From: a bacterium
GTDB taxonomy: Bacteria > Sumerlaeota > Sumerlaeia > MVZB01
Assembly: GCA_021372575.1 (NCBI GenBank)
Contig: JAJFUE010000029.1
Location: forward strand, 22,646-86,645
Direction of reading: 5' to 3'
Length of the DNA: 64,000 nt
Under the pieces are notes generated by a model. It was not told the DNA's origin, did no database searches, and worked only from the letters and a program-made list of their open reading frames with translations. Positions 17,215 through 36,164 of the stretch are shown here, piece after piece. A program made the translations under genes and the position numbers. Every line of letters starts with the position of its first letter. The stretch's first letter is position 1.

Positions 17215-17290
17215 GGCGCTATCGTCTAGGGGTCTAGGACGCTGGCCTCTCACGCCGGAAACAGGGGTTCGAATCCCCTTGGCGCTACCA
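17215..17290 (+). tRNA. tRNA-Glu (anticodon CTC), CCA encoded; the integration target of the island
   Basis: Aligns with E. coli tRNA-Glu along its whole length (TCGTCTAG…AGGAC…CTCAC…AACAGGGGTTCGAATCCCCT). Anticodon stem CTGGC/GCCGG, loop CTCTCAC, T-loop TTCGAAT, discriminator A, CCA. The acceptor stem has G1:U72 and U6:G67 wobble pairs. Confidence 0.75.
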
Positions 17291-17303
17291 AACTGAATTC
17301 GCA

Positions 17304-17337: not shown

Positions 17338-17375
17338 TAGTAAGACCCCACGTTACACGGGTCATGTTACACGGG

Positions 17376-18470
17376 TCACTCCGATACACCATCTTTCTTG
17401 GGCTCAGGAAGCGCGATCTCCAGGATCGGAGCGGTCGGATGACAGTAACGCTCCGTAGTGCTGATCCGGTTGTGTCCAAGCGCCGCCTTGAGCGCGAACG
17501 CATTGTGCCCAACCATCTCAGCCATCAATGTCGCGTAGGTGTGGCGAAACGAATGCCCAGTAAGCTTTTGCCCGAGTGCATCATACTTGGGGATACCCGC
17601 TTTCTTTAGAACATCATCGAACTGGCGGCAGGCAGCGAAAAGACGCTTGAATACAAACGCTGTCTTTGAACGCTTCATTTGCGATTTAAGAGGCTCGATG
17701 ACCCATTCGGGCAACGGAATCACGCGCACCTTCGGATTCGCCTTAGCTGCCCCTTGACGCTGTTTGGCTGTTCTTAGCCTGATTAGGCTGTGCTCGAAGT
17801 CCACCTCGGTCTTGAGCAGCGGTTTGTGGGTGCTCATCGGAGAAGGCACGAGTTCTGCCTGACGCGCACCGGTGGCAAGCATGAGCAAGTAAAGCGGTTT
17901 GAGTCGAGCAGGACAAGCCTCGAAAAATTTGGCGAGTTCTTCATTGGTTAAAGCACGTTGTGCGGTTACCTTGCCTGGTTTAGGAGTGGGCTTCTGCACG
18001 TGGAATCCATTTACGCGCAGCATCCGGATCATATAGATCAGTTCCCGGTTGACGGTGCCGAGAGATCTCGTCTTTAGGCGATAACGTTGGAATTTCTCCA
18101 GTAGCTCGGTTGTGATCCTTTCCAGTTTGATGTCGCCGGCGTAGTTCAGGAAGTTCTTTAGCGAGAACTCAACCCGCTCACTCTGAAGGGGCGAGACGTC
18201 TATCTTGAGCCGCTGCACCTCTGCCTTGATCGCGTTGGAGAGAGTCAACGGGTCCCTTGGGTCAATCCGATAGCTCTCCGCCATCTCTTTGAGGCGCGGG
18301 ATCTCTTTAAGCGCTCGTTTCTTGTCCGTCTGCCCTGTTGAACGGCTCCAAGTCTTGCCATTCACCTCAGTCTGATAAATCCAAACGTTTCGACCTTTCA
18401 TACGACGTAAAACCATCGACAAAGCCTCTGTTGGGCTGCGCGCCCAGGAATGTATCTGCATGCGATTCAC
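17376..18470 (-). CDS. int: Tyrosine-type site-specific integrase (phage integrase family)
   Basis: 364 aa. C-terminal catalytic motifs …GHSFRHTYAT… and …LGHNRISTTERYCH… (H-x-x-R and the catalytic Y). N-terminal SAM-like/AP2-like DNA-binding region. Confidence 0.85.
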   Translation of the reverse strand: MNRMQIHSWARSPTEALSMVLRRMKGRNVWIYQTEVNGKTWSRSTGQTDKKRALKEIPRLKEMAESYRIDPRDPLTLSNAIKAEVQRLKIDVSPLQSERVEFSLKNFLNYAGDIKLERITTELLEKFQRYRLKTRSLGTVNRELIYMIRMLRVNGFHVQKPTPKPGKVTAQRALTNEELAKFFEACPARLKPLYLLMLATGARQAELVPSPMSTHKPLLKTEVDFEHSLIRLRTAKQRQGAAKANPKVRVIPLPEWVIEPLKSQMKRSKTAFVFKRLFAACRQFDDVLKKAGIPKYDALGQKLTGHSFRHTYATLMAEMVGHNAFALKAALGHNRISTTERYCHPTAPILEIALPEPKKDGVSE

Positions 18471-19237: not shown

Positions 19238-21847
19238 TTAATCTTGAGCCTTTTGTTGCAGAAAATCAGACAACTCTTTCTTCACAAGTACTGGCATATC
19301 CACATCGCGCCATGTTTCTTGTTTTATCCAATCAAGACATTCTTCTTTTGTCAGTGAATCATTCGCAATTAAAGATGATATTTCTAGAGTCGTTGTTCGC
19401 GACAAGCCCATAGCAACCAATGCAAGTTGGGTTTTCTGTGAAACACCAAATTCCAACATATTGCTTATCTCTGGTATCTCAATGACAAGGTCTTGGCGTT
19501 CTTTACTACGGTAGAATAGATTTAGCATATCAATGTAGCATGCGAAATATTTGGGGGCTTCAAAGCGAGCATATTGTTCAACATCTTTCATTACATCCCG
19601 TATTACTTTGGCAACATGTTCCGGATGGCTCTTGAGCCGTTTGGATATCAGGACAGCCAACGGCATACCTCTCATCCAGAGAAGAATCAGATATGATATT
19701 TGGTAAATACGTTTTTCTGAAGGACCGAACGTGTTTGACAGGAATTCGTTAATAATTTTTATAATCCTTGCGTATACATCATACGCATCTCGACTTTCAG
19801 GCATTACAGGCTGCAATTGCGTTATGTCACCAGAATACGATTCGAAATACTTGACCAGATTTTCCATCGCATACGGACTGATGCCAGGGTGTTTTATAAT
19901 CATATTTTCAGGTATCGCAATCTTATTATGCGCTTCATCTATAAGCTCACTTAATAACTGAACTTTTTCAGGATTGATTCGTTTTGCCCACGGAGCTTTC
20001 TCGATTGACCCATACCGTGTTTTGTTCCACATTAGATACGATAATAAATAATCATATTCAGGTTTTTGACGAGCTATATTCCTTGGAGTTCTTTCATTCA
20101 CATAGGATATAAAATCATGTGCATCATTCATTATTCTGTCACTTGATCTCTCGATCATATACTTCTCTCTTATGCGTGGCGCACCACCCTCCCATACGTT
20201 TTCCTCTCTTGCGTCTATACAAAATATGTTTCCTTGGAATTCTTTTCCCCATCTTCCTGCTCGACCGGCTAGATTCCAAAAGTCCGCCGCACTCATTATG
20301 TTTCCATTGCCACGCTTAGGACCGCGCACAAAGATGTTTTTACAAGGAAGATTTACACCCTCCAGCAATGTAGATGTTGTGAATAAATACTTAATAACAT
20401 TCTTTACAAATAACCTCTCGATATTCATGCGTATTAGCAATGGCATATTGCCATAATGAAAAGCTATACCTTTTCTTAATACCGTTGCCAACAAGTAATG
20501 TTCATGTATAGTCTTTTGTACCAACTCAATCAATTCCCTCAACTCTCCATCAAGTTCCATTTCAGGCATAAGGTCGTACAACACGAATGATTCCTTTTCG
20601 GCGACCGCCGCCCCATTAACATAAATGAGATTGCCACCATCTGAACTTCCCAACCTTTCCGCAATAAAGGGGACCTTCTTCATTACACCGACCGGGCGAA
20701 ACAACAATTCGATAGTTCCCAGTGGCAACTCGCATTCTTGCACACATAATTCAAGCTTATATATTTTGGAATTGCGTGGTATTTGCGATATCCATATTAG
20801 ATTCTGGTTTACTGTAATTTGTTCGCTTGGAATTGATTTATTATTATCTTGCCTGGGTGCATCCTCAAAGAATATTTCTGGGTTTTGGGTGAGTGGGCTT
20901 GCAAATATGATCTTAATTTGCTCATTGATGGCACAACAATAGTCTAACACCTGTTGCAAAAGAGTCCCGCGATACCCATCACTAATCTTATGAGCTTCAT
21001 CAACGATGATTAGGTCTATTGTTCGATCCCTGAGTTCCATCAAAAGCAAATGAAGTCTCTCTTGGGTTAGAATGAACACATTGTGTTTACTGTTCGACAG
21101 TTCCACATTTAAGGGCATCTGGGAAATGATGACATTGGCAGATAAACCATTATCCTTCACCATAGCAAGACAATCCGATTCTACCTGTGTAATTAACGCA
21201 CGCGTCGGAACCACATAAACAGCACACATCATCCTATCGGATTTGCTGATTCGATCCATCAACCAATTTAACAATATATAGGATTTACCTGATGATGTCG
21301 GAGCCGATACGCTGAGCCAATCAATTTGCTCGGCTTCTTTCCACACCGATAATTGTAGGTCATTTAACGTAAGTACATTTCCATTTGCCATACCCACAGT
21401 ATGCTCAATGTTGTTATGTATCCATTCACAAGCAAGTCCCAGAGGAAGACGCCTTTCAAGATTCGTTTCCAAATAGCATCGATGAACTGCCAGATTAATT
21501 GCTGGGTAGTTCGCAAGTCTTTGCAATATAATCGCTGCTGTTTCCTTTTGTATTTTGGATGTATTCTCGTCAATCATGCAGGCTTGGGCTATCCGCAAAG
21601 CTGCATCCTGTTGTGATTCTTTATTAGATTGACACAAAATGCTGGCGCAAAATAATAAATATTTCCAGTCATGCTCGATCTCATACACGTTCTTTGTTAG
21701 ATTGGGGAACTGCGACATAACGGATTTAGCGGTCAGAAACGATAGCCGTTGCCGAAAATCCGTATTGTTCAATATCCATTCTTGTATTTTAACTAACCCC
21801 ATTTCCCCCCTCCAATTCTCTGCGAAACGATGTTCTAAAATCATCAA
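19238..21847 (-). CDS. Superfamily 2 DExH-box helicase, HamB-like (putative Hachiman helicase component)
   Basis: 869 aa. Motif I SAPTSSGKS, motif II VDEAH, motif V-like TSTLLEGVNLP, motif VI LAGRAGRWG. Sits immediately downstream of, and overlapping, a 340-aa partner gene, in an AT-rich island. Confidence 0.65.
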   Translation of the reverse strand: MMILEHRFAENWRGEMGLVKIQEWILNNTDFRQRLSFLTAKSVMSQFPNLTKNVYEIEHDWKYLLFCASILCQSNKESQQDAALRIAQACMIDENTSKIQKETAAIILQRLANYPAINLAVHRCYLETNLERRLPLGLACEWIHNNIEHTVGMANGNVLTLNDLQLSVWKEAEQIDWLSVSAPTSSGKSYILLNWLMDRISKSDRMMCAVYVVPTRALITQVESDCLAMVKDNGLSANVIISQMPLNVELSNSKHNVFILTQERLHLLLMELRDRTIDLIIVDEAHKISDGYRGTLLQQVLDYCCAINEQIKIIFASPLTQNPEIFFEDAPRQDNNKSIPSEQITVNQNLIWISQIPRNSKIYKLELCVQECELPLGTIELLFRPVGVMKKVPFIAERLGSSDGGNLIYVNGAAVAEKESFVLYDLMPEMELDGELRELIELVQKTIHEHYLLATVLRKGIAFHYGNMPLLIRMNIERLFVKNVIKYLFTTSTLLEGVNLPCKNIFVRGPKRGNGNIMSAADFWNLAGRAGRWGKEFQGNIFCIDAREENVWEGGAPRIREKYMIERSSDRIMNDAHDFISYVNERTPRNIARQKPEYDYLLSYLMWNKTRYGSIEKAPWAKRINPEKVQLLSELIDEAHNKIAIPENMIIKHPGISPYAMENLVKYFESYSGDITQLQPVMPESRDAYDVYARIIKIINEFLSNTFGPSEKRIYQISYLILLWMRGMPLAVLISKRLKSHPEHVAKVIRDVMKDVEQYARFEAPKYFACYIDMLNLFYRSKERQDLVIEIPEISNMLEFGVSQKTQLALVAMGLSRTTTLEISSLIANDSLTKEECLDWIKQETWRDVDMPVLVKKELSDFLQQKAQD

Positions 21848-22811
21848 CAGATGGAAATGGCAGGCAAAAGACTTCTATTTTGAAATTCTCAAGGTTCTCA
21901 TCTTTAATCCTAGCGCGTATCCGTTCGTGCCAATATGGGACCAACTCTGTCATTTCTTTAATGATTATTCCAATTTCCTTTTCATGGTTGACTAGTGGAT
22001 ACTTGTCAGAATCAAAACCGACTAAACATACGCCGCAATAATCATAGCGCAAGTAATTTGCGCTTCGAGGGTCTAGGTAGCTTATTAGTGCTCTTTCAAG
22101 CGCAGCGTCATTCAAATCCATATCACTTCGCAACAACTGCAAATCACGTTCCTGAGTTGCTCGTGATGATCCTTCATCCAATAAGAACGGAGCAAGACTG
22201 CTAAAGCACTCGCGAACTGAAGTGGCGGTATCCTTATGAAGCTTCGATTCCCCCCAATATAACTCCAATCTTCCAGTGTCCTCAACAACCATCGCATGAA
22301 CACCATCGCATCCGTGATAGTGCACTTGGGGGTTCGTCTTTAATGACATTTTCGATATTATCTGAGGCAAACCCAGGACGGATTCTGTCATCATCGATAA
22401 AAGAAGTTCCCCGCCTTCACCCGAAGTCTCAACGTTGGCAAACAAGTTTCGGGCTTCTCGTTCCAACCGGCAAAGATAACTTGATGATCCGGATCGCGCT
22501 CGAATGTTAATTGCGTCTTCGATTTTAGATCGGGGAATTGCATAATCCAATCGATCGTCGAATATCTTCATTATCAGATTGCCGACACAGGGAAGACCAT
22601 TCGGTCCATTTTTAAGCACATGGCAATACGCACGGGCTTTAGTGCCATCGACCTCGATTTTCACATCAAGCGATTCGAATAGCGTATCAACTTCGTATCG
22701 CTCATGCCGAACAAGACGTCTCAAGTGTGATGCAAGTAGTGGAGCGTCCGTCTGTAGATCTTTCGGTTCATAACTAGGAAGTGCGTCAGGACTCATGATG
22801 CCCCCGTTCAT
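21789..22811 (-). CDS. Hypothetical protein, candidate HamA (DUF1837)-like partner of the SF2 helicase
   Basis: 340 aa, co-directional with the helicase gene, which overlaps it by 59 bp. Family assignment rests on size and synteny only. Confidence 0.35.
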   Translation of the reverse strand: MNGGIMSPDALPSYEPKDLQTDAPLLASHLRRLVRHERYEVDTLFESLDVKIEVDGTKARAYCHVLKNGPNGLPCVGNLIMKIFDDRLDYAIPRSKIEDAINIRARSGSSSYLCRLEREARNLFANVETSGEGGELLLSMMTESVLGLPQIISKMSLKTNPQVHYHGCDGVHAMVVEDTGRLELYWGESKLHKDTATSVRECFSSLAPFLLDEGSSRATQERDLQLLRSDMDLNDAALERALISYLDPRSANYLRYDYCGVCLVGFDSDKYPLVNHEKEIGIIIKEMTELVPYWHERIRARIKDENLENFKIEVFCLPFPSVDDFRTSFRRELEGGNGVS

Positions 22812-22957
22812 ATATGAATCTTGAATTCACATTCATGACCACATCTATCAGACATTATCACTTTTTATAAATAACTCATCATCTAAAGTGGCTTACAGCA
22901 ACCGATATGTTATCAAAGTGATTATAGAAAGCAAGCCCAGTGGTGCTCCCAAATGGT

Positions 22958-24247
22958 TTAGAACAAATCTTTCAATCCTTTGGGTCTCGCTTTTGGCATA
23001 TCAGTGACAGGGATCTTCCGGTCGATCGTCGCTTCCTCGTCCAGTTCACCGATAAAGTCGTTCTTGATTCTGGATACTTGCATGGATATGCATTTCTCTT
23101 TGACCAAAGGCTTGATCTGATCCAGTTGCGGCAACTCGCGCCCTCTTTGGGTGCTCATGTAAACCCATCGTGTCGCGCGGGTAATCCCAACGAACAGCAA
23201 ATTCCGGATACGGTCAGGACTCATCTTATCGAAAAGCACTGGATCGAGCTTCGGCAGGAAAACCGAATCGAAGGTAAGTCCCTTGGCGCTGTGATATGGC
23301 ATCAGCTTGGGGTAATCGCTTCCAAAGTCCAAACCACGATACGTCGATTCTTTATGTCCCGCCTTCACTGGGACTTCCACTTCCAGACCAGCTTCCATGA
23401 GTGCTTTCGCGTAGCCATACACAAAACGTTTTTGCGGGAAGAGAATCGCGATGCGATCCCCCTTTTGCTGACGCGTCTTAATGGCTTCGATCAGACGATC
23501 TGTTTCTTCATCCTTGTCTGTCGCCAGGACGATCAAAGGCGTTTCCCGTTCGCCTTGCGACGTTTTAGTCTGACGAAGGTAGGCTTCGCGCTCTTGCGGA
23601 TCATCGATGAAGGTTGAAGCGATTTGAGAGATATAAGGGCAGCAACGATACGCTTCGAGCAACGACAGGTTCCGTTTGCGCAGTCCCAAAGCTTTCAGTA
23701 TGCCATCCTCAGAGGAACCGTGATCATAGATCTGCTGTTTATGATCCATGCAGACAGTCACGTGTTTGGCGATTTTTCTGAGGATTCCAAATACTGTGGG
23801 GGATAGATCCTGCCCTTCATCGACCAGAACGAAATCATAGGGGTGATTTTCAAAGCCTGGCATCTGGAGCTTCTTGAGAACGCCTTCCCGAATCGCTGTG
23901 AAATCAGGAGATTTACTTGTTTCATTCCACGGCGGTCGCTTGTTGATATGAACCGTATAGAAATCTCTGCACCATGCGTCAAAACTGATCACACACCCCG
24001 GATGTATGTTCAGCAGATCAAGCGCGCCATGGATGTAATCCTTGAGCGCATTGGTGTATACGAAAATGCGAAATCTGTCTGGCTCGATATTGTAGTTGTC
24101 GAGCAAGAAACGGGCGCGGTGAATCAGCGTCAAGGTCTTCCCCGACCCAGGCGCACCGAAGATCACCTTGTGCTCGTTCATCGGCATTTCAACTGCCCGA
24201 ATCTGATCGGGCGTCAATTCTTCCCTGGGAACCAGCCAGCTACTCAT
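22958..24247 (-). CDS. Short UvrD/Rep-like SF1 helicase (GajB-sized, about 430 aa)
   Basis: Walker A GAPGSGKTLTL, motif II VLVDEGQDLS, motif VI VGITRATRWVYMS. Start overlaps the stop of the upstream Hsp70-like gene (ATGA). Confidence 0.75.
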   Translation of the reverse strand: MSSWLVPREELTPDQIRAVEMPMNEHKVIFGAPGSGKTLTLIHRARFLLDNYNIEPDRFRIFVYTNALKDYIHGALDLLNIHPGCVISFDAWCRDFYTVHINKRPPWNETSKSPDFTAIREGVLKKLQMPGFENHPYDFVLVDEGQDLSPTVFGILRKIAKHVTVCMDHKQQIYDHGSSEDGILKALGLRKRNLSLLEAYRCCPYISQIASTFIDDPQEREAYLRQTKTSQGERETPLIVLATDKDEETDRLIEAIKTRQQKGDRIAILFPQKRFVYGYAKALMEAGLEVEVPVKAGHKESTYRGLDFGSDYPKLMPYHSAKGLTFDSVFLPKLDPVLFDKMSPDRIRNLLFVGITRATRWVYMSTQRGRELPQLDQIKPLVKEKCISMQVSRIKNDFIGELDEEATIDRKIPVTDMPKARPKGLKDLF

Positions 24248-26694
24248 TGCCGGTCCTCCTTATGCGCCCGTTCGGGGAGTTCCCCCGTGACACCTAGTGC
24301 CTGGGTCTTCAGCTTTCGCGATTTTCTCGTTCTATCTACCTCGGCTATTCGCTTCGCATCGTTTTTCATGCGCGAGGCGCGCTCATACCATAAAAGCTCC
24401 CATTCCGTCATCGTCTCAACAGATTGAAATAGCTCAAAAGCCATTTCGAGGGACTGGTCGCGTGTCTTCGCTTCTTTCATCGAATCCGCGATCTGGGCTT
24501 TTAGGACAAGATAGGCAGGAGCTACTTGAACGTCCAGCGCTTCATCAATTGCTTTGGCAGCTTTATCCAGCAATCCCCGACTGCGATAACTCAAAGCAAG
24601 GTTGAAGAGCGGTCCGCCCCAATTCGCAAAGCGAGCCGATTCCCGGAGGAATTTTTCCTCACGGTTGTAATCGCCCATCTCACCAGCCAGCAGCCCCATC
24701 TTGTTCAGGATTTCCTCGTCCTGCCCGCCGCGCACTCGTAACATCTGGCTATAAAGATGCATCGACTTGTCCCGCTGTCCAAGTTCCGAGCAAAGCCCGG
24801 CAATTTCCATCACGACTTCTTCCTGCTTGGCTTGGGACATCTTTTTGCTGCGCATCTGCTCTTCAAGCTCATCGATCCGTATTTTCTTGCTGTTTGGATT
24901 GACGATATTACTCAAGGGGTTTTCGATCGTGGCGTCGAATCCCTGGTGCCCCTGATTGCTTTGCGTATCAATCCGCAAGTTGATGATCTGATTTTCATCC
25001 ATGTGATACTGGAGGACTAATCGCTCACCTTGAGTTGGTCGGGTTTCCATGTTCCAGACACCGGAGAATAAACTCTGCCCTTTCTCACCCACCAACTCCA
25101 CATGCAACTGCAAAGGCGACCGGCTGCTTCCCTTTGGCACAACCAGGGAGTCGTTTTCGGACCATTCACCTTCAGCCGGATAGGGCAATCGCGCCCCACG
25201 AGGAATCAGCTCAAGCGGCTCGTCCGCTGTTTTAATGGACACGCTTTCAGCGCATACCGGACGTACCAATCCATGCCCGCACATTTCCAACATCAAGGCA
25301 TGGTAAGCTGCACCTTTGGCGACCGCAGTCTGGATATCATCCTGCGAGTCGTAGCTCAAAACTTCAGCCAACCCAAAGTATTCCGAGACCGCCTCAACGA
25401 CCTGAGGAATCAGGCAACTCCCACCAACGAGCAAACATAAATCAATGTCGTCGCTCGTCAGAGATGCCCGATCGAGCCCGTCGGCAAGCGGGGCGAAGAT
25501 TGAACAAGTCATTCGGTATTCGGATTCCCGATGGAAAACAAAATCCGAGTCGAGGAACGGAGTTAAGACGGTGTCCAGTTGGATCGCGCTCAGACGAGGC
25601 GATTGAATCCGAAGTTCCCGCCCATTGGGCAGCTTGCAGGTGTGAACGCCGGGCTGGATCTTAAACGTCTCGCTTTTGCGTGCCTCATCGTATTTTCCAA
25701 ATCGTTTGAGTGTTCGGATTTCACTGCACAACCCTATTTTCAATGACTCAGCGAGACTAAGGAACGCCGGTTCAAGCTGATTCTTCTTCGTGTCGAAATC
25801 CAGATCGTGAGCGCACAAGCCGTTTTGTTCAATGATCTGCGGGATCAGCACTTCGTAGAGGATTGACGAATCGATGTCCCCTCCGCCCAGGCGATGATAG
25901 CGCGATACGGAGAGCGGTGAGATCTCAAGCATAGCCTCGTCTTCGGCGATGCCTATTCTGAAGATCGCAACGTCACATGTGCCGCCACCGAAATCGAACA
26001 CCAGGAGATTCTTCGTTTCGCCGGGTTCGAGGATCGTGCTGAGGTCGTGGGTTAAGACGTAATCCAGGAACGCGGCGATCGGCTCGTCAAGCAGATCTCC
26101 GCCACGCACATCGTATCCAGCCAGACGTGCGGCATCGAGCGTGTCCTGGCGCTGAGCGGCTTGGAACGAGGCGGGAACGGTGATCACGGTCCGAGCCACT
26201 GGTTCGTCCTGGTCTGACGAGCTTTGAGTTTTCAGGAAGGCGAGGACCTTGGAGGCGATATCCTTGGCGGACTGGAAGCCATCGGGGGCACGGTGATAGG
26301 TCTTATCGAGCCCCATGTCGTTCTTGCAGTCCCAGAAGATGTTGCGGTTACGCGCGAGACCGTAGTCGGGATCGGCGGCTTTGCCCCTGAGTCGCTTGGC
26401 ACCCTCGCCGACGAAAAGCTGCCCATCATGAACGGCAACAACCGAGGGGACAAGCGAATGGGTGTATCGCCCTTCCAGGGTTCCCTGGTCGATCTCGACA
26501 CATCTGGCGGCTGCCTCTTCCTCGTCCTTGGGATTAAACACAACCTCGGCGACCGTCGAGTTGGTTGTCCCCAGGTCAATGCCGATGACCCGAATGGGTT
26601 GCTTCGATTTTCGTGCTCCAGCCCCCCGCAACAGGTTGGCGATCTTCATTCGACAGTTCCTTCCTGAGCCGAAATGACCCGTAAGCTCGTGCAA
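24244..26694 (-). CDS. Hsp70/DnaK-like actin-fold ATPase (nucleotide-binding domain) fused to a C-terminal TPR-like helical domain
   Basis: 816 aa. Phosphate-1 IGIDLGTTNSTVA, connect-1 LLVFDFGGGTCDVAIF, adenosine motif, then a C-terminal roughly 250 aa with TPR-like repeats. No Hsp70 substrate-binding-domain signature is evident. Confidence 0.7.
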   Translation of the reverse strand: MHELTGHFGSGRNCRMKIANLLRGAGARKSKQPIRVIGIDLGTTNSTVAEVVFNPKDEEEAAARCVEIDQGTLEGRYTHSLVPSVVAVHDGQLFVGEGAKRLRGKAADPDYGLARNRNIFWDCKNDMGLDKTYHRAPDGFQSAKDIASKVLAFLKTQSSSDQDEPVARTVITVPASFQAAQRQDTLDAARLAGYDVRGGDLLDEPIAAFLDYVLTHDLSTILEPGETKNLLVFDFGGGTCDVAIFRIGIAEDEAMLEISPLSVSRYHRLGGGDIDSSILYEVLIPQIIEQNGLCAHDLDFDTKKNQLEPAFLSLAESLKIGLCSEIRTLKRFGKYDEARKSETFKIQPGVHTCKLPNGRELRIQSPRLSAIQLDTVLTPFLDSDFVFHRESEYRMTCSIFAPLADGLDRASLTSDDIDLCLLVGGSCLIPQVVEAVSEYFGLAEVLSYDSQDDIQTAVAKGAAYHALMLEMCGHGLVRPVCAESVSIKTADEPLELIPRGARLPYPAEGEWSENDSLVVPKGSSRSPLQLHVELVGEKGQSLFSGVWNMETRPTQGERLVLQYHMDENQIINLRIDTQSNQGHQGFDATIENPLSNIVNPNSKKIRIDELEEQMRSKKMSQAKQEEVVMEIAGLCSELGQRDKSMHLYSQMLRVRGGQDEEILNKMGLLAGEMGDYNREEKFLRESARFANWGGPLFNLALSYRSRGLLDKAAKAIDEALDVQVAPAYLVLKAQIADSMKEAKTRDQSLEMAFELFQSVETMTEWELLWYERASRMKNDAKRIAEVDRTRKSRKLKTQALGVTGELPERAHKEDRQ

Positions 26695-26725
26695 GCAGGC
26701 ATTTGGGTCCGCGACATCCGATCGT

Positions 26726-27355
26726 TTATCGCATGATAACGTCGAAGTTTTCAGGAATCAATGGTTTAGCCCCGAGGTTGAGGAGATCAGCGTTTGCCGG
26801 CGCGTCGAAGGTCCAGACGGGCTTTCCTTCACGTATGATCTCCTGGGCTAAGGCGAAGGTATGGCTGGAGGGTTCGGAGTGGATGATCAGGCAAGCCGAG
26901 CTGAGGGCGGCAGCGAAACGGTTTCGCTCCTGAGCGGTTTCCTTGCAGACGCGTTGTTCATTCTCGGCGAAGCAGGAGAGGAGTAACATCCGACCTTGGT
27001 CGATGGGTTTGCGCCAGGGCTGTGGGATACGCATCCCTTCCAGACTCCGTGCGACACATACGATGATCGATAGGCTTCCCCGCAACAAGACCTCCAGGCA
27101 CTCCTTCTCGACGGGGCTATGAAATCCGCTGATGACTGTGACGCTTTGATCTCGTAGCCCTTTGGCGAAGTCGTGGGCTTGCAGGATAAGGCTGGCGGGG
27201 CATTTTGAGGAGCAGAACAGTCCGATTTTCCGATGCTTGAGAATTTCGAAATTGCCAATGCCTCTGGAGGTATTGTTATATCTCATAAATTCATGTTTAA
27301 CATCCAGATGAAGAACTGAATCAAAAGGGCGAATATGAAAAATACCAGATGTCAT
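26726..27355 (-). CDS. DprA/Smf-like Rossmann-fold (SLOG superfamily) domain protein
   Basis: 209 aa. VISGFHSPVEKECL…SLSIIVCVARSLEG…GRMLLLSCF…RNRFAAALSSACLIIHSEPSSHTFALAQEIIREGKPVWTFD follows the DprA pattern ISGxAxGID…TIAV…LLSE…RNRIIAGLS…VVEA…SG…A…G..VFAVP. No SAM or WH domains. Confidence 0.55.
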   Translation of the reverse strand: MTSGIFHIRPFDSVLHLDVKHEFMRYNNTSRGIGNFEILKHRKIGLFCSSKCPASLILQAHDFAKGLRDQSVTVISGFHSPVEKECLEVLLRGSLSIIVCVARSLEGMRIPQPWRKPIDQGRMLLLSCFAENEQRVCKETAQERNRFAAALSSACLIIHSEPSSHTFALAQEIIREGKPVWTFDAPANADLLNLGAKPLIPENFDVIMR

Positions 27356-27361
27356 GTTGGT

Positions 27362-28039
27362 TCAGTCCAGTGCATCTCGATCTTCTCGAAGATAGACGAT
27401 CACCTCTGTCTCAAGAATTCCAAATGTTTTCAATAGGCGTCTAATATTATCCCGAAGACTGTTTGCCGAAAGATTGACCTCGGCATAAAGCTTTTCAGTG
27501 ATTTTCATCGAAGAACGGAGTTGACCAGGATCTTGTGCAAATGAGCGATTACCACGACTGGATTCAAAATCAGGATTGTTGGGTAGTTGTTCCATCAATC
27601 GTCGATTTTTAACCAGCAAATGTTGGCAGACCAATTCATAGACCCGCTTCCAAGTGACTTGGTCTTTGTAAGCCTTGCCTTGGATTACAAACCCATATGG
27701 ACGCTTGTAACGATAATCCTCCGATAGCGAATGTGGCGTCTCCTTGTCCAATTCACGTATGATACGCTGGTTTGCTTCATCATTTCGTGCATGTATTTCA
27801 TTCTCAACAGGTCTCTCCAGGGAAACGGATGTAAATTTTTGGATCAGCGTTGATAGATCAGTTGCCACACGGTCAAATTCCATCATCTTCTCATTGTATT
27901 TGCGTTTGAACTCGACTCCGGCGTCTAGCGCTTTGGAATTGTTATGGTCGATACTTAGCCATATATCGTCTGAAAGGGATAAAAGATTTTCCTTGGTACG
28001 CTCTAACTCGCTTAAAATGGCATGTATTTTATTTTCCAT
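27362..28039 (-). CDS. Hypothetical protein (predicted coiled-coil N-terminus), first gene of the four-gene operon
   Basis: 225 aa. Ends 7 bp upstream of the DprA-like start. Same strand and same AT-rich compositional block. Confidence 0.45.
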   Translation of the reverse strand: MENKIHAILSELERTKENLLSLSDDIWLSIDHNNSKALDAGVEFKRKYNEKMMEFDRVATDLSTLIQKFTSVSLERPVENEIHARNDEANQRIIRELDKETPHSLSEDYRYKRPYGFVIQGKAYKDQVTWKRVYELVCQHLLVKNRRLMEQLPNNPDFESSRGNRSFAQDPGQLRSSMKITEKLYAEVNLSANSLRDNIRRLLKTFGILETEVIVYLREDRDALD

Positions 28040-28176: not shown

Positions 28177-29259
28177 TCACCCCCGCGCCAGTTTGATGAT
28201 TCCATTTTGTTCCATCCAGTGTTGCGCGGCCAGGCGCCAGGCCTGGGCTGCGCTGACCCGTCGCGGGCCGCTCTGCGACTTTTCCACGATCTGCGCTGCC
28301 ACCGATTCGATCCACGCACACACCTCCCTTCTTTTACGCCGAGTATAAATCCGGGCCTGTTGACAACCAAGTGAAAACACGGCGCACGGGGTTTGCCGGC
28401 CGAGGCACGGGCGCGGCCGATGATTGAGTCGGTCGGCCGCCCGTTCGACCAGCTGATCGCCCGCGGCACCACCGTTTTCCCCCAGTTGTTTGACAAATTC
28501 CTCCTTGATCTCGCGCTGGGCCCGCTCCATGGCGCCGTTGTAGGGCGGGTAATAGGGCGGGCTGTTGAGCGGCAGGACCAGCGCGCGCGCCATGACCTCA
28601 TCGACGCTCCCGCCGTTCAAGTTGCCATGATTGTCGCGCTTCAAAAACAGCGGCGCCCCGAAGCGCCGGAACAATGAATCCAAATGCTCGGCGACGGCCT
28701 GGCCGTCCGCCAGACGCGTTCCTACCAGTGGCGGCATCTTGAACCGCGCCCCGACGTCCTCGACGGCATGCACGTGGAGCTTGCCGCCGCCGTTCTCGTT
28801 CGAGATCTCGAGGTCGTCCATCGACCAGACAACGCCGGCCTTGAGCCAATCGATCCGCTCCTTGGATGCCCGCGCCTCGGCCGTCGCCCGGGCGCGGGCA
28901 TCGTGAATCACGCGCATCAGGTCGCGCCGCGAAATACAGTCACGGTTGCGCCTGTAGAGCGCGCCCGTGCCCGCCGTTCGGTGCCGGCCGTGACTAAGTG
29001 CGATGATCTCCTCGTTGAGCCGGTTCCAATCAAGCCACCGGCCCTTGGCCGGTCCGGGCCGGCGCACGGCCGGCTCGCCGCGCTCGATGCGGCCCTTCCA
29101 GCGCATGAGGCTCGAATATGCCACGGCGCAGGCGAGGCACTGCGCGCGCAGCGACAGCCCAACGTGTTTTTTCAAGCCGCTCATGCGCTTAACGATCATC
29201 GTGCGGATCTCGTTCTTTTTTTTTCGTCGCCGGGCCGGGGGCGGTGTCTCGCGATTCAA
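28177..29259 (-). CDS. IS3-family-like transposase OrfB (DDE / rve integrase core)
   Basis: DDE triad candidates WSMDD, KRDNHGN and NGAMERAQREIKEEF. Overlaps the upstream orfA by 71 bp in the -1 frame. Confidence 0.7.
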   Translation of the reverse strand: MNRETPPPARRRKKKNEIRTMIVKRMSGLKKHVGLSLRAQCLACAVAYSSLMRWKGRIERGEPAVRRPGPAKGRWLDWNRLNEEIIALSHGRHRTAGTGALYRRNRDCISRRDLMRVIHDARARATAEARASKERIDWLKAGVVWSMDDLEISNENGGGKLHVHAVEDVGARFKMPPLVGTRLADGQAVAEHLDSLFRRFGAPLFLKRDNHGNLNGGSVDEVMARALVLPLNSPPYYPPYNGAMERAQREIKEEFVKQLGENGGAAGDQLVERAADRLNHRPRPCLGRQTPCAVFSLGCQQARIYTRRKRREVCAWIESVAAQIVEKSQSGPRRVSAAQAWRLAAQHWMEQNGIIKLARG

Positions 29260-29578
29260 TCTTTTCGATCGCCTGTTGAATGCCGGCGCGCTGCTCGGCC
29301 AGCAGCACCCGGCGTTTGAGGCGCTCGTTCTCGCGCCTCAGGCGCGTCCGCTCCTCGTCACGCGGCGCCTTCGGCCGGCCGCCCGCCCTCGCGTCCAGCG
29401 CTTTCATCAGCCCGGCCAGGCCCCGCTGCTCCCATTTGTAGTAGGTCTTGCGGCTCACGCCCAGGCGCCGGGCCGCCTCCGCCGCCGTCATCGTCCCGCT
29501 GCGCACCTGGACGATCAGCTCCGCTCTCACCCGCTGCATCTCTTCCGACATCTGCTGCTGCTTCGGCTTGCCCGCCAT
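29189..29578 (-). CDS. IS3-family-like transposase OrfA (HTH)
   Basis: 129 aa. HTH …TAAEAARRLGVSRKTYYKWEQR… and a leucine-zipper-like C-terminus. A poly-A slippery run (A9 G) lies in the orfA/orfB overlap at about 29207..29225. Confidence 0.6.
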   Translation of the reverse strand: MAGKPKQQQMSEEMQRVRAELIVQVRSGTMTAAEAARRLGVSRKTYYKWEQRGLAGLMKALDARAGGRPKAPRDEERTRLRRENERLKRRVLLAEQRAGIQQAIEKIESRDTAPGPATKKKERDPHDDR

Positions 29579-31223
29579 CGCATTCGCTCCTCAATGCCGT
29601 CAGATCGTTCAACTGGATGTCTTCGCCATCGGTTCCTTCGCCTCGGCCGGCTTCGCCGCACTCACCGGCGGCCGTCCCTGCTGCAGGCGCGCCAACCGCT
29701 CCTGGAAGCGGATCATCTTGCCGCTGCGCGAGATCGCCTTGCGCTCGAGCAACTGCTGAAGCCGCGGCCCCAGGATCGGCCCCTTCTCCTCTTCCTCGCG
29801 TGTTCTCGGTTCCAAGGCTTTCAGCATACCCTCCATCGCCTGGTCCTGCCACTGATTGAGCTGGCCCCACTGAATCCCCAGCTCCTTGCACACCTCCGAG
29901 GGCTTGCGCCGCTCGGCCCAGATCGACAGGATCGCCTGGCATTTCTCCCGCGCCGACAAGTGATTGCGCGGCGCGCGCCGCTTCGGCTCCGCCGCCGTCT
30001 TGGCCTCCGTTTTCATTGCTTTCGTCCTCCTTCATTTCATAGACCAGTTCGCGCGGCTCGTCCTCCCCGTCGCTGCCCACCGTCATGCGCAGCTTGCCCT
30101 TTTCGGCCCGGATCACCACCGACTGCTCGCCCATGCGCCCGACCATGTAGAACGGGTCGCGCGGCTTGCCGCGCAGCGCCATCTCCAAAAGGTTCTCCTG
30201 CATGCCCTGCTCGATCGTCTGGCGCAGCGCGTGCTGGATCTCGTAGAAGCGATCGGCCGGGCACAGGCCCCCGATCCCCTGGTGCGGGCGGCGGTGGTTG
30301 TAGTATTGCACCCACATGCGCGTGCGCTCGGCCGCCTCCTCGAACGAGCCGAACTGCGCGCGGCACAGATACTCCGTCCAGATCGTCTTCCAAAAGCGCT
30401 CGACCTTGCCGAGCGTCATCGGGTGGTGCGGCGACGAGCGAAAATGGTGGATGCGGTCCTTGGCCATCTCCTGCTCGAAGCGCGTCTTGCCGCGCCAGTT
30501 CGTGTACTGGCGGCCGTTGTCGGTCAGCATCTCGCGCGGCACGCCGTATTCCGTCACCGCGCGGCGGTAAACTTCCAGGACGTGTTCGGCCGTCTGGCTG
30601 TGAAACAGCCCGAGGCCCGTCACGTAGCGCGAGTAGTCGTCGACGAAGCCGATCAGGTAGGCCTGGCGCCCGCCGAGGCGAAACGTGAAGATGTCGCTCT
30701 GCCACATCTGGTTGGGAGTCGAGCGCTCGAAGAAGCGCGGCTTGGGAGGGTTGCGCGGGGCCCGGTCCCGTCGCGGCTCGATGAGCTTCTCCTCGTGCAG
30801 CGTCCGGCGCACCGTCTCGGCGCTGGCCGGCAGAAAAAACCAGCGCCGCAAGAGCTGCGAGATGCGCCGCACGCCCAGCCCGCCGTCGCGCCGCTTCATC
30901 TCGACGATCCGCTCGCGCACGGCCGGAGCCAGCCGCGGCTGGCTCCGGCCATGCGCGGACTCCAGCCCCGCCGCGCCATGCTCCCGCCAGCGCCGCACCC
31001 ACAGGCTCACCGAGCTCACTCCTACCCCCAACTGCTCGGCCACCAGCTTGACCGGGTAGCCGTCCTCCACGTGGAGATTCACAGCCCGGAGCTTGAGCTC
31101 GTGCGAATGCCGCACCCTGCGGCTACGCCCGGCGTTACCCCCGCGCCGCCGCTCAGATTTGCTTCTCTTTTTCTTTGTGATTTCTTGTTCTTGATCTAAC
31201 TGCTGCTCATCCATGGTAGACAC
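29358..31223 (-). CDS. IS481-family transposase (HTH + DDE). The true 3' end is probably near 30050-30100; the ORF reads through into the neighbouring IS
   Basis: N-terminal HTH, DDE motifs MWQSDIFTF, GFVDDYSRY, TDNGRQY and HPMTLGKVERFW (IS481 signature). The C-terminal roughly 200 aa is low-complexity Gly/Ala-rich and overlaps two HTH ORFs in other frames. Confidence 0.7.
   Translation of the reverse strand: MSTMDEQQLDQEQEITKKKRSKSERRRGGNAGRSRRVRHSHELKLRAVNLHVEDGYPVKLVAEQLGVGVSSVSLWVRRWREHGAAGLESAHGRSQPRLAPAVRERIVEMKRRDGGLGVRRISQLLRRWFFLPASAETVRRTLHEEKLIEPRRDRAPRNPPKPRFFERSTPNQMWQSDIFTFRLGGRQAYLIGFVDDYSRYVTGLGLFHSQTAEHVLEVYRRAVTEYGVPREMLTDNGRQYTNWRGKTRFEQEMAKDRIHHFRSSPHHPMTLGKVERFWKTIWTEYLCRAQFGSFEEAAERTRMWVQYYNHRRPHQGIGGLCPADRFYEIQHALRQTIEQGMQENLLEMALRGKPRDPFYMVGRMGEQSVVIRAEKGKLRMTVGSDGEDEPRELVYEMKEDESNENGGQDGGGAEAARAAQSLVGAGEMPGDPVDLGRAAQALGGVQGAGDSVGPAQSVAGPGDGGYAESLGTENTRGRGEGADPGAAASAVARAQGDLAQRQDDPLPGAVGAPAAGTAAGECGEAGRGEGTDGEDIQLNDLTALRSECDGGQAEAAADVGRDAAGESGADRPGAQRDDDGGGGGPAPGREPQDLLQMGAAGPGRADESAGREGGRPAEGAA
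29609..30016 (-). CDS. Transposase-associated HTH protein (OrfA-like), belonging to an adjacent or nested IS
   Basis: 135 aa HTH (…SAREKCQAILSIWAERRKPSEVCKELGI…). Confidence 0.4.
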   Translation of the reverse strand: MKTEAKTAAEPKRRAPRNHLSAREKCQAILSIWAERRKPSEVCKELGIQWGQLNQWQDQAMEGMLKALEPRTREEEEKGPILGPRLQQLLERKAISRSGKMIRFQERLARLQQGRPPVSAAKPAEAKEPMAKTSS

Positions 31224-31777: not shown

Positions 31778-32800
31778 ATGGTCCGTGAGGTTACTCCCGC
31801 ACCGCCCCCAAGCCCCTCCGTATGGAGCGAGGCGACATGGGATCATCTGGAGTGCGCACTGCGCCGCAAGGCTTTGAATTCGCCAACGGACGATGCCGCC
31901 TGGCTGTCGATCGTTCGCGCCTCGCGAAGAATCATGGCGCGCTACACGACAAGTTTTTTCATCGTCAGCCGTTTTCTGCCGCTATTCAAGCGCCAGCGGG
32001 TCGAGGTCATTTACGCGGCCGTGCGTTATCCGGATGAAGTGGTCGATACTTTCCCCCTGAGTGCCCAGGATCGTGGCGCGCGCCTGGCTCGCTGGGCGGA
32101 GGCATACGAACGCGGGCTGAACTGCGCCGGTTTGCGCGAAGCCCTCAAGGCCGAGGTTCCCGCGTTTCTGGCTGCCTTTACGCGCGTGGTGCGCGAGTAT
32201 CGAATCCCCCCGGAACACTACCGCTCATTTCTGACGGCGATGCGCCGCGATATCTCGCCGCGCCCGTTTCAATCGCTTGAGGATCTGATCGAGAACTACG
32301 TCTATGGCAGCGCGGTTGTTGTCGGCTACTTTCTGGCTTATGTTTACGGCCACTCAACAGGGAGCCGGATGGACGATGCGCTGGCCTGCTCGCGGGATCT
32401 GGGCATTGCCCTGCAACTAACGAATTTCCTGCGCGACGTGAAGGAAGACCAGCGGCGCGGGCGACTATACCTGCCGCTGGACCTGTTGCGCCTGGCCGAA
32501 GCCGATCCTGACGATCTGGATGAACCGGCCAACAGACGCAAGATCCTGACGGTCATCGGGCAAATGACCGATATCGCGGATCGGTATTATCAGCATGCCG
32601 CCATGCGGCTGGATGTCTTCGCGCCGGACTGCCGGGTGGCGATCAAGGCCTGCATCGACGTTTATCGCAAACTCAACGGCCGGATCGCGGCCAGCCCCGA
32701 TTGCATCGGCTGCCGCGAGTCGGTTCCCATGCGCGAGAAACTCGCCGCATTGCCACCGAACAAATACTGGCGTTTGCCCCTGTCGCTGCTAGGGTGGTGA
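31778..32800 (+). CDS. crtB: Phytoene (squalene) synthase family, CrtB-like
   Basis: 340 aa. Trans-IPPS head-to-head motifs (…YAAVRYPDEVVDTF…, …LQLTNFLRDVKEDQRRGRLYLP…). Confidence 0.75.
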   Translation: MVREVTPAPPPSPSVWSEATWDHLECALRRKALNSPTDDAAWLSIVRASRRIMARYTTSFFIVSRFLPLFKRQRVEVIYAAVRYPDEVVDTFPLSAQDRGARLARWAEAYERGLNCAGLREALKAEVPAFLAAFTRVVREYRIPPEHYRSFLTAMRRDISPRPFQSLEDLIENYVYGSAVVVGYFLAYVYGHSTGSRMDDALACSRDLGIALQLTNFLRDVKEDQRRGRLYLPLDLLRLAEADPDDLDEPANRRKILTVIGQMTDIADRYYQHAAMRLDVFAPDCRVAIKACIDVYRKLNGRIAASPDCIGCRESVPMREKLAALPPNKYWRLPLSLLGW

Positions 32801-32804
32801 ATCA

Positions 32805-34301
32805 ATGGGCCCTGGCCAAACAAGTAACTTGCGACGCGTCGCGGTGGTCGGGGCGGGGCTCGGCGGGCTCAGCGCCGCGATTCATCTTCGTCTGCGCGGA
32901 TTCGACATCACGCTCTACGAAGCAGGGGAACAAGTTGGCGGCCGCGCGAATCGGATTTCCGAGGGCGGGTTCACCTTTGACACGGGTCCGACCCTGCTCA
33001 ATTATCCCTGGGTCTTCGAACAGCTTTTCGCGGACGCCGGCAAAAGGCTTGAGGATTATGTGGAATTGCTGCCGGTCGAACCCTCCATCCGATATCTGTG
33101 GCCCGGGGGCGAGAGCCTGGGGCTGACGAGCAATCTGATCGGACTGGTGCGGGAATTCCAACGCCTGGAGCCGGGGTCGGGACCCGGGCTGTTCGCCTTT
33201 CTCGACGATGCGGCCGAAAAGTACCGTTTCTCATTCGACAAAATGGTCTGCTGCAATGTCGACAACCCGCTGCGATGGCTGGGCGCCTTAACCCCGCGGG
33301 AAATGCTGCGCTCCGGAATCTGGCGCAGCCTCGACCGGGAACTGGCGCGGTTTTTCCGCAGTCCGCTGATTCGCGAGGCGCTCGGGTCCTATGGCATGTA
33401 TCTTGGCGGTTCCCCGCATCGGCTACCCGGGATCTTCTCGATATTGCCTTACGGCGAGCTGGCGATGGGGCTCTGGCTGCCGCGCGGCGGGATCTACGGT
33501 CTGGTTCTTGGGATCGAAAAATTGGCGCGCGAAATGGGCATTCGCATTCTCACCAGACAGCGGATCCAGCGCATCATCCAGCGCGCCGGCGCCATTGCCC
33601 AGTTGGAGTTTGCCGATGGCCGAATCGAGGACTGGCCGCTGGTCATCGCCAATGTGGACGTCCCCACGGTCCAGCATCGGCTCCTGGCCGGCGACGGCTA
33701 CCGGCCGCCCAAACCCCTGAAGATGACCCCCGCGGTCATGACCTTTTACTGGGGTGTTCAAGGCGAGATCGGCGGCGCCGGGCATCATACGGTCTTCATG
33801 CCTCAGGATAGCGCGCGCGCTTATCATGAACTCATCGTGCGCCACCGGATCCCCGAAGTACTTCCGTTTTACATGAGCATCGCTTCGGCGACCGATCGGG
33901 CGCTGGCGCCTCCCGGCGCTTCAACCGTGATGATCCTGGTCCCCTTGCCTCAGCCGGCCCATTTGCAGGGTATCGACGAAAGCCGACTCAAGGACGATAT
34001 CAGGCAGCGGGTTCTTGACAGACTGGGACAACATCGAATCGAAATCCCGCGGCAGGCCATCGTCATGGAACGGATCATGGCACCGGCGCAATGGGGCGAA
34101 CGCTTTGGACTTTTTGAGGGCTCCGCATTCGGCGCGGCGCACACTCTTTTCCAGATGGGCGCGTTCCGCTACCCCAATCGCGAGCGGGGCGTCCGGGGAT
34201 TATACTACACCGGCGCCAGCACAACGCCCGGAACAGGATTGCCCATGGTGGTCCTCAGCGGAAGAATGACCGCGGAAAGGGTCTGCTCGGATGTTTGTTA
34301 A
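32805..34301 (+). CDS. crtI: Phytoene desaturase family FAD-dependent oxidoreductase (CrtI-like)
   Basis: 498 aa. N-terminal dinucleotide fold VAVVGAGLGGLSAAIHL…EAGEQVGGRA. CrtI-family length. Confidence 0.7.
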   Translation: MGPGQTSNLRRVAVVGAGLGGLSAAIHLRLRGFDITLYEAGEQVGGRANRISEGGFTFDTGPTLLNYPWVFEQLFADAGKRLEDYVELLPVEPSIRYLWPGGESLGLTSNLIGLVREFQRLEPGSGPGLFAFLDDAAEKYRFSFDKMVCCNVDNPLRWLGALTPREMLRSGIWRSLDRELARFFRSPLIREALGSYGMYLGGSPHRLPGIFSILPYGELAMGLWLPRGGIYGLVLGIEKLAREMGIRILTRQRIQRIIQRAGAIAQLEFADGRIEDWPLVIANVDVPTVQHRLLAGDGYRPPKPLKMTPAVMTFYWGVQGEIGGAGHHTVFMPQDSARAYHELIVRHRIPEVLPFYMSIASATDRALAPPGASTVMILVPLPQPAHLQGIDESRLKDDIRQRVLDRLGQHRIEIPRQAIVMERIMAPAQWGERFGLFEGSAFGAAHTLFQMGAFRYPNRERGVRGLYYTGASTTPGTGLPMVVLSGRMTAERVCSDVC

Positions 34302-35073
34302 GCAATATGGATCGGGCGATCGGCTCTTTCTTTGCCTGCATGGCTGGGGTGGCGACCACCGGGAGTTTGCCCCCCTGGCATCTCGACTGCCCGAAGGCGC
34401 GTGTCTGCTGAGCGTCGATTTGCCGGGCTATGGACAAAGTCCCAGACCGGCTGAGTGGACGATGGATTCCATCGTGTCCGGGTTGCGTGGCGAGCTTGAC
34501 CGCCGCTCGGATCAACCCTGGACGCTTGTCGGATTCTGCAGCGGCGCGATCCTGGCTCTGCTTATCGCCACGCAGGCCCCGGAACGGGTGCGGCGTGTTG
34601 TCCTCATCGATCCGTTCGCATTCGTCCCGTGGTACTTCCGGATATTCCTGGCCGGCGAATTCGGCCGCCGCGCATATCACACAACCTTCCAGACCCACGC
34701 GGGCCGCGCGCTCACCGATTGGGTGCTCAAACGATTCCAGACCGCCGATGCCGACTTCACGCGCTCCTTCGTCAACCTGGATCACGAAGTCACCCTGCGC
34801 TACCTGGAATTACTCGGCACCGTTGAAATCCAACAGTTCCGCGGCCTCTCGATGGCCATCGACATCATTCATGGCAAGCACACATTCCGTGCCGTCCGCC
34901 GCTCGGTCGGGATTTACCGCAAGCTCTGGCCGCACTCGCAGGTGAGGATTCTGCCCGGCGTGGGGCACCTGCCGATGATCAAGGGTGCCCGGCAATTGGC
35001 GGCAATCATTTTCGGATCTCCCGACGGCGAGGCTGCCGGCAGTCAACCGTTGCGGGACCCATCGTCAAAATGA
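34291..35073 (+). CDS. Alpha/beta-fold hydrolase/acyltransferase with a GxCxG (Cys) nucleophile elbow
   Basis: 260 aa. HGWGGD oxyanion region, nucleophile elbow VGFCSGA, C-terminal GVGHLPM His region. Confidence 0.55.
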   Translation: MFVKQYGSGDRLFLCLHGWGGDHREFAPLASRLPEGACLLSVDLPGYGQSPRPAEWTMDSIVSGLRGELDRRSDQPWTLVGFCSGAILALLIATQAPERVRRVVLIDPFAFVPWYFRIFLAGEFGRRAYHTTFQTHAGRALTDWVLKRFQTADADFTRSFVNLDHEVTLRYLELLGTVEIQQFRGLSMAIDIIHGKHTFRAVRRSVGIYRKLWPHSQVRILPGVGHLPMIKGARQLAAIIFGSPDGEAAGSQPLRDPSSK

Positions 35074-36157: not shown

Positions 36158-36164
36158 GCAGTTC

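Follow-up and report, generated by a model that had tools for sequence, protein, structure and literature searches.

Within a 64,000-nucleotide stretch of contig JAJFUE010000029.1 (assembly GCA_021372575.1; Sumerlaeota), four genes that had been proposed to form one new anti-phage system turned out to contain a conserved gene pair and two companions that are rarely found with it. We refer to the whole stretch as the window and label the genes A, B, C and D, as minus-strand open reading frames (ORFs) in 5′ to 3′ gene order (Table 1). Genes C and D encode, respectively, a protein combining an Hsp70-type nucleotide-binding domain (NBD) with tetratricopeptide repeats (TPR) and a compact UvrD-like helicase of superfamily 1 (SF1), and we are close to certain that they make up a real, conserved two-gene module. 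This module is an unnamed candidate that probably functions in defence or against mobile elements. For the locus as a whole, we lean towards the view that two defence-island modules with separate inheritance, A–B and C–D, have come to lie head to tail in an integrative element that also carries Hachiman.

The pairing of C with D was found across the bacterial tree. A scan of GTDB with one genome per species detected a relative of C in 353 of 185,579 species, mostly uncultured bacteria from at least 15 phylum-level lineages. These relatives are proteins of about 800 amino acids with 45–53% identity to the window C across many phyla; such a patchy spread, with identity that is alike regardless of phylum, indicates horizontal spread. 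We retrieved 80 of these loci for comparison and searched them by tblastn with the four window proteins, rechecking the counts for A and B by profile search. Of the 74 loci with room for a further gene (at least 500 nt of sequence after C), 67 had a D-like gene directly downstream of C, and across the 80 loci the partner of D was always an Hsp70–TPR protein. All-versus-all clustering of the ORFs in these loci identified C and D as the sole genes conserved throughout; downstream of D it showed no third gene shared by the loci. A set of ORFs of about 157 aa at that position was considered as a third component and rejected, as the proteins are unrelated to one another. Upstream of C, small ORFs formed no family, save an occasional A or B. 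The distance matrices of C and D from 53 loci were correlated (Mantel r = 0.61, a value reached by 0 of 2,000 permutations), indicating that the two genes have been inherited, and have diverged, together.

We also observed that the partner of C is exchangeable. Seven loci with room lack a D-like gene (L067, L068, L075, L077, L082, L083 and L085), most of them from Desulfuromonadales and related lineages. Two of the seven (L068, 12352–12918; L083, 4599–5135) have an HD_4 phosphohydrolase of about 180 aa after C in place of the helicase, and in L068 its ORF overlaps C by 4 bp; most of the others have small unrelated proteins at this position. A constant Hsp70–TPR protein with swappable enzymes is the pattern expected for a sensor with interchangeable effectors. 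The HD_4 protein of L068 and L083 resembles a small alarmone hydrolase. No true member of the C family was present among 72,556 PLSDB plasmids or 50,697 INPHARED phages, and among the 2.9 million viral contigs of IMG/VR the family occurred in just one or two short contigs. This near absence points to a cellular accessory pair rather than a phage or plasmid function.

Genes A and B do not share this conservation. The original prediction had treated the four genes as one conserved system and had suggested co-occurrence across genomes as a check; C and D do travel together, but A–B–C–D does not do so as a unit. A was detected in only 2 of the 80 GTDB loci of C (L012 and L017) and B in only 1 (L033). 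Conversely, of 84 A loci only two (L154 and L160) contain C, which there follows A, and B is beside C only in the window and in L033, and 6 kb upstream of C in L003. These counts speak against one obligate four-component system, with A and B as sensor or regulator subunits of the Hsp70–helicase pair, which we regard as very improbable. It is also opposed by the GC content at third codon positions (GC3), which is 0.40 in A versus 0.58–0.63 in B, C and D, and by the finding that A heads unrelated genes in other loci, namely a DUF3800 gene, an HsdR-like gene and a sigma70-like gene. What speaks for it is the co-directional, tight spacing with no coding-strand terminator-like site detected between the genes in our scan, a distant Priestia plasmid operon of an Hsp70 and a HEAT-repeat protein that also ends with dprA, and the position of A or B directly upstream of C in six independent loci (the window, L012, L017, L033, L154 and L160). 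A shared niche is the simplest account of these six loci, since both modules gather 3′ of type IIG/ISP methyltransferase loci. The locus is a caution for annotation, in that a tight co-directional cluster in a defence island need not be a single system.

The gene layout itself was as predicted, on the minus strand, with some differences in spacing. The 4-bp ATGA overlap between C and D was confirmed, and the gap between A and B is 6 nt instead of 7. The proposed 31-nt gap between B and C holds only with a TTG start of C at 26694; with the ATG at 26649 it is 76 nt. This ATG is preceded by a GGAAGGA ribosome-binding site and yields the 801-aa product, which corresponds to an NCBI protein (P0001) with 100% identity and 100% coverage. 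All four are real genes, because full-length conserved homologues exist for each of them. The genes vary in GC content (A 0.42, B 0.52, C 0.54, D 0.50 and HamB 0.40, with flanks at 0.60–0.66), which indicates a mosaic origin. A promoter-like site upstream of C could be a weak candidate internal promoter for C–D, although the promoter and terminator scan of the locus gave site counts not above those of shuffled sequence.

Both C and D look like active ATPases, because their catalytic motifs are conserved. The domain calls that had been made from motifs were recovered in Pfam, with DNA_processg_A in B, HSP70 (2e-34) and sub-threshold TPR matches in C, and UvrD-helicase, UvrD_C and UvrD_C_2 (1e-8 to 1e-13) in D. 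In C, the motifs GIDLGTTNS (D25), DEP (E189) and FDFGGGTCD (D219 and T224) and the residue K85 are invariant in 22 diverse homologues. We take these five residues to be equivalent to the catalytic set of DnaK. The catalytic Asp, Lys, Glu and Thr of an actin-fold NBD are thus all present, which places C in the Hsp70 superfamily at the fold level. The structure prediction that had been suggested for this protein resolved its parts: the AlphaFold2 (AF2) model, with a pLDDT score of 85.5, has an Hsp70 NBD at about 19–457, a beta-sandwich resembling an Hsp70 substrate-binding domain at 462–576 and a TPR-like helical array at 587–783. Used as the sole query, the C-terminal 342 residues retrieved 348 representatives among 1.84 billion proteins; among the 150 matches listed, about half were 780–810 aa long with the region at about 455–795, and the others were shorter. 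C thus seems to belong to a closed family whose architecture is fixed. In D, the SF1 motifs Q, I, II, V and VI (the Q motif, GxPGSGKT, VDEGQDL, KGLTFD and FVGITRAT) are well kept: each occurs in no fewer than 60% of 55 homologues, and most occur in 90% or more. Most of these homologues are no longer than about 415 aa (429 aa for the window D), a length that suggests they are too short for the 1B and 2B accessory domains of a full-size UvrD. The best PADLOC matches of D were C3a187 (NERD+UvrD; 7e-25) and GajB models (down to 7e-19), and it also matched an NCBIfam HelD-type model (1.6e-12). Solved structures included no close relative of C or D and gave only generic Hsp70 NBD and UvrD/PcrA matches.

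Consistent with a role in defence, C–D recurs beside defence-type genes. In the window the pair is next to Hachiman, and in a Desulfotomaculum-like genome (L001, 8001–11731; L002, 467–4197) it is inside a type III CRISPR–Cas locus, between a csm6/Cas02710-like gene and cas6. Elsewhere it neighbours an Eco57I-like enzyme and the PADLOC candidate PDC-S68, DruA (Druantia) or HmaC/DUF499, and members of the family neighbour type III restriction–modification and Schlafen-AlbA_2 genes. In L040 (6756–17188), C–D is placed between a PLD-SNF2 helicase of about 1,050 aa and a type ISP/IIG-like methyltransferase of about 1,130 aa, a pair that recurs around C–D in L012, L017, L028 and L069. Counting within 10 kb in 81 C loci (the 80 from GTDB and the window), we found an Eco57I/ISP-like methyltransferase in 13 and a PLD-SNF2 helicase in 12, often immediately upstream. 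Among 114 immediate neighbours, the Pfam tally included ResIII (7), PLDc_2 (7), Helicase_C (6), SNF2 (5), Eco57I (4), NERD (3), N6_Mtase (3) and WYL (2); this tally was more useful than a PADLOC scan of the same proteins, which was dominated by five PLD-SNF2 proteins with many models each.

These neighbours bear on two other explanations. C–D might not be autonomous and could instead assist type IIG/ISP or Hma-like methylation-based restriction, or type III CRISPR, as an accessory or regulatory add-on that might, for instance, remodel or unload the complexes of those systems. The methyltransferase and PLD-SNF2 counts, the position of the pair in L040 and its location within type III CRISPR in L001 and L002 all fit this idea. 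We consider it unlikely, as most loci with 10-kb flanks, the window included, have no such partner and the systems found next to C–D are diverse and unrelated, as island co-location predicts and dependence does not. Alternatively, C–D could have a non-defence function, as a specialised chaperone–helicase for DNA repair, stress response or upkeep of the carrier mobile element. Both superfamilies are best known from housekeeping, and some neighbours are ordinary, such as histidine kinases and sugar enzymes. Nevertheless, the patchy distribution with phylum-independent identity, the location of the window pair in a low-GC stretch of an integrated element and the recurrence of defence-type neighbours make such a function improbable, and the absence from plasmids and phages speaks against element upkeep in particular. 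In three loci, a VIT and von Willebrand A protein of about 800 aa is encoded near C (L082, 1210–3588; L048, 3138–5555; L080, 5965–8394), and in L082 its gene is directly upstream of a helicase-less C.

If C–D is a defence module, one possible mechanism is that C is the constant sensor or regulator. Its beta-sandwich and TPR surface would capture a protein or nucleoprotein client made by the phage, and its Hsp70-type ATP cycle would turn client binding into a switch that recruits or releases a partner enzyme. The usual partner, D, might then strip or unwind intermediates of phage replication, recombination or transcription, or it might burn ATP. The likeness of D to HelD-type RNA polymerase recycling motors and to GajB fits either output. 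In some lineages, the HD-type phosphohydrolase would be the output in place of D. We put this specific division of labour, in which C senses and D acts, forward as a doubtful working model. In a reversed, Gabija-like logic, D would sense phage DNA ends or single-stranded DNA (ssDNA) and would then switch on C, the effector, through its ATP turnover or a conformational signal. C might, for example, sequester or unfold an essential protein, form polymers or use up ATP. Helicases are the sensors in Gabija and Hachiman, and the best PADLOC matches of D are GajB and NERD+UvrD helicases. Background on those sensors is given in PMC13069673 and PMC11914072, and in other conflict systems Hsp70 and tubulin assemblies are proposed to act as effectors (PMC7159879). 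The replacement of D by an HD_4 enzyme while C stays fits better with C as the sensor and its partner as a variable effector. TPR arrays are also typical recognition surfaces. We therefore judge both the reversed logic and the corresponding action of C to be of low probability.

Several points weigh against the assignments that we prefer. The defence role of C–D is argued by guilt by association, from genomic context alone, and a recognisable restriction or defence gene is the immediate neighbour in only about one-quarter of the C loci. No nuclease or other obvious toxic effector is recognisable in C or D. Signalling between C and D might run in either direction. The six loci with A or B directly upstream of C exceed chance for families this rare, and they could reflect a functional link. 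Finally, the pair, which we rate as outside every described kind of system, may have been named recently, as the comparison used a 2023 copy of PADLOC and a partial literature.

With regard to novelty, C–D was matched by no named system, in agreement with the original prediction. In PADLOC v2 (the 2023 copy, with its HEC and PDC models), Pfam, NCBIfam and PHROGs, C matched only generic HSP70, and PADLOC has no model for C or A. The literature searched, which was incomplete, contained no description of the pair; the MANTIS preprint and a domain-centric discovery paper do not mention it, and the papers that did come up, on CoCoNuT and on GTPase-centred systems from the Aravind laboratory, concern different systems. 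Components of a similar kind have been predicted for conflict systems other than C–D (PMC11090510, PMC7159879). The nearest described layout is that of the computationally predicted type III-B and III-C CoCoNuT systems, in which an Hsp70-like NBD and substrate-binding domain (SBD) with HEAT repeats (CnuD) is encoded with the SF1 helicase CnuH (PMC11090510). Both arrangements have a stand-alone Hsp70-like protein with helical repeats and an SF1 helicase in defence-type operons, and C has the domain order of CnuD as given in its published description, which is our source for that protein. However, C–D lacks the McrB-like GTPase CnuB, the DUF2357 McrC homologue CnuC, the CnuE effector and the coiled-coil proteins; we found neither AAA_5/McrB nor DUF2357 in the six genes at 19238–28039, and the 25 commonest Pfam families in the 114 neighbours include neither. 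CnuH is UPF1-like, whereas D matches UvrD/PcrA/Rep/HelD models and not AAA_11/AAA_12. The repeats of CnuD are HEAT repeats, whereas those of C score as TPR, and the ATPase motifs of CnuD are described as degenerate (PMC11090510), whereas those of C are invariant.

Other known systems share single features with the locus. Compact UvrD-like helicases have been recruited repeatedly by defence systems (PMC13069673), and the resemblance of D to GajB had been pointed out before, together with the missing OLD-family partner. Gabija is likewise a two-gene island module with a UvrD-family helicase, and D matches many GajB profiles. These matches cover the profiles partially and are weaker than that to C3a187, and D homologues of about 415–430 aa compare with GajB profiles of 430–635 positions. 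No GajA (OLD/TOPRIM) match was found in A, B or C, the partner being Hsp70-like instead; in the 'type II Gabija' GajB–GajC (PMC13069673) the partner is MazF-like, which C is not. B has a DprA-type Rossmann domain like those of the antitoxins PsyrA and ShosA, of which the DprA-like ShosA binds ssDNA (PMC11961720). By contrast with ShosTA and PsyrTA, the locus has no phosphoribosyltransferase toxin ShosT and no RecQ-like toxin PsyrT, D being SF1 UvrD-like. Neither the SAM domain found in ShosA nor the additional region of PsyrA is present in B, whose partner A appears to have a new fold. Nor does B resemble the DprA of transformation (35.8 bits on TIGR00732, against a cut-off of 191, and no SAM/DML1 architecture). 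Similarly, C is far from canonical Hsp70 in NCBIfam (DnaK, 127 bits against a cut-off of 648; HscA, 115 against 620), its C-terminal lid is replaced by the TPR-like array, and no DnaJ or GrpE domain was found in A, B or D or in the 25 most frequent neighbour families. In the toxin–antitoxin–chaperone systems of Mets et al. 2024, as relayed in PMC13069673, phage proteins divert the client binding of a chaperone, which thereby serves as an infection sensor. The chaperones in that account are SecB-like and not Hsp70-like, and C–D has no toxin–antitoxin pair, making this an analogy only. Hma-embedded modules and PADLOC PDC candidates have a similar layout, as small modules in or at helicase–methylase loci (compare L040, L012 and L027).

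Two plasmid loci also encode Hsp70 family proteins. A distantly related operon on Priestia megaterium plasmid pNCT2_2 (L172, 2657–13422), which contains the Hsp70 family and HEAT-repeat proteins and the terminal DprA mentioned above, also encodes a metallo-beta-lactamase (MBL)-fold hydrolase, three hypothetical proteins and a HAD hydrolase; here Hsp70-like and DprA-like genes occur together for a second time, independently. On Antarctobacter plasmid pSMS3-3 (L173, 5449–10880), the gene for an Hsp70 family protein of 959 aa precedes those for an AAA ATPase and a hypothetical protein; insertion sequences flank all three, and the operon has the look of a conflict system.

If C–D is a defence module, it would represent a new sensing principle in bacterial immunity, an Hsp70-type ATP-driven client clamp, and infection would be halted without a nuclease. 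It would also be a minimal, tractable counterpart to the Hsp70-like parts predicted in type III CoCoNuT, and it would imply that large defence families are still hidden in uncultured Acidobacteriota, Nitrospirota, Desulfobacterota and the Planctomycetes–Verrucomicrobia–Chlamydiae (PVC) group. A broader and tentative proposal is that C–D is the founding example of a class of immune modules in which a catalytically competent Hsp70 NBD–SBD with TPR reads phage clients and ATP-driven clamping licenses interchangeable enzymes, be it an SF1 helicase, an HD phosphohydrolase or another partner. Were this so, a protein-folding machine would have become an infection sensor that is widespread in uncultured phyla and has escaped screens focused on E. 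coli and Bacillus.

A–B is a second recurrent and undescribed module, associated with methyltransferases and rarely beside C–D. The contigs of the 84 A loci include near-duplicates, so that the counts overstate independent events; an Eco57I-like methyltransferase of 1,100–1,290 aa is present in 30 of them, nearly always just upstream of A (11–36 nt where measured). Of the 62 informative loci, 29 have a B-like gene close to A: directly downstream, after a sigma70-like gene, or upstream. We found zero matches for A in Pfam, PADLOC, NCBIfam and PHROGs, in line with its earlier description as hypothetical. Its family comprises about 225 clusters and has the strong motifs LSDDIWLSIDHND, YKRPYGF, NLSAN and YLREDRDA. 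In the AF2 model of A (pLDDT 90), a long helical hairpin at the N terminus is followed by an alpha/beta domain at the C terminus. The Protein Data Bank (PDB) contained no significant structural match for A, with a recurring weak likeness to the SeqA C-terminal domain, and the model suggests a new fold. B consists of the Rossmann part only (Pfam DNA_processg_A, 7e-13), matches PsyrA (7e-17) and, over the Rossmann part, ShosA (7e-3) in PADLOC, and like A has no match among solved structures. We propose that A–B is a small new-fold protein with a DprA-like, probably ssDNA-binding protein that would normally trail Eco57I-like type IIG methyltransferase genes. In the window, two insertion sequences occupy the methyltransferase position upstream of A, and this copy may have lost its methyltransferase neighbour. 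One possible role for A–B is that of an accessory, so far overlooked, to type IIG or BREX-like restriction. In several metagenomic loci, the A-like and B-like genes are separated by a gene for a protein of about 470 aa that has sigma-70 regions 2 and 4, downstream of Eco57I-like and Schlafen/AlbA_2 genes (L144, 7653–9110; L096, 1172–2563; L135, 7703–9109).

Table 1. Features of the four-gene locus and of the surrounding integrated element (window coordinates)
Feature	Position	Strand	Details
Gene A	27362–28039	−	225 aa; no family assignment; leads the A–B module
Gene B	26726–27355	−	209 aa; stand-alone DprA/Smf-type Rossmann domain
Gene C	24244–26649 (ATG); alternative TTG at 26694	−	801 aa from ATG; Hsp70-type NBD, beta-sandwich and TPR-like array
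Gene D	22958–24247	−	429 aa; compact UvrD-like SF1 helicase
Promoter-like site	26733–26761	−	TTGATT-17-TATCAT, 9/12 matches; inside 3′ end of B, upstream of C
HamA (Hachiman)	21789–22811	−	Pfam HamA 7e-53; PADLOC HamA 6e-106; 146 nt downstream of D
HamB (Hachiman helicase)	19238–21847	−	PADLOC HamB E = 0, 1019 bits
tRNA-Glu	17215–17290		beside the putative integrase
Putative tyrosine-type integrase	17376–18470	−	C-terminal HxxRHxxxxxxxxxxxxxxxxxxxxxxxGH...Y pattern; position beside tRNA-Glu
attL-like copy of 43-bp exact repeat	17250–17292	+	3′ part of tRNA-Glu
attR-like copy of same 43-bp repeat	40255–40297	+	far end of ~23-kb element
Two insertion sequences	28177–31223	−	directly upstream of A

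The surroundings of the locus are consistent with an integrated element. A low-GC, tRNA-integrated island had been predicted, and the integration at a tRNA was confirmed: two exact copies of a 43-bp repeat from tRNA-Glu, for which 100 shuffles gave no chance match, bound an element of about 23 kb integrated at this gene. The low-GC part of the claim holds for 19–28 kb only, with values that vary by gene, and the element is much larger than this stretch. A search for att repeats within 16.9–30 kb gave none, and the second copy was found at 40.3 kb. By their sequence, the adjacent HamA and HamB are a true, textbook Hachiman, as had been proposed, which is a neighbouring system outside C–D. In the two insertion sequences, 29358–31223 encodes a clear rve transposase, with matches to rve, HTH_32 and related families; an HTH orfA is at 29189–29578, and an orfB-like ORF at 28177–29259 had zero Pfam matches. 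A scan for non-coding RNAs detected two tRNAs only.

We also noted several features outside these modules. A 14-nt tandem repeat (CACGTTACACGGGT / CATGTTACACGGGT) at 17349–17376 abuts the integrase stop codon and is a possible recombinase binding site. Inside the att-bounded element, a carotenoid biosynthesis cluster with host-like GC (31778–39514) encodes a phytoene synthase, two desaturase-like oxidoreductases, a polyprenyl synthetase, a GT2 glycosyltransferase and a Caroten_synth protein, an unusual cargo beside defence genes. A second mosaic low-GC stretch (0.45–0.59; 40300–50000) begins right past the distal att copy and may be a second island in tandem.

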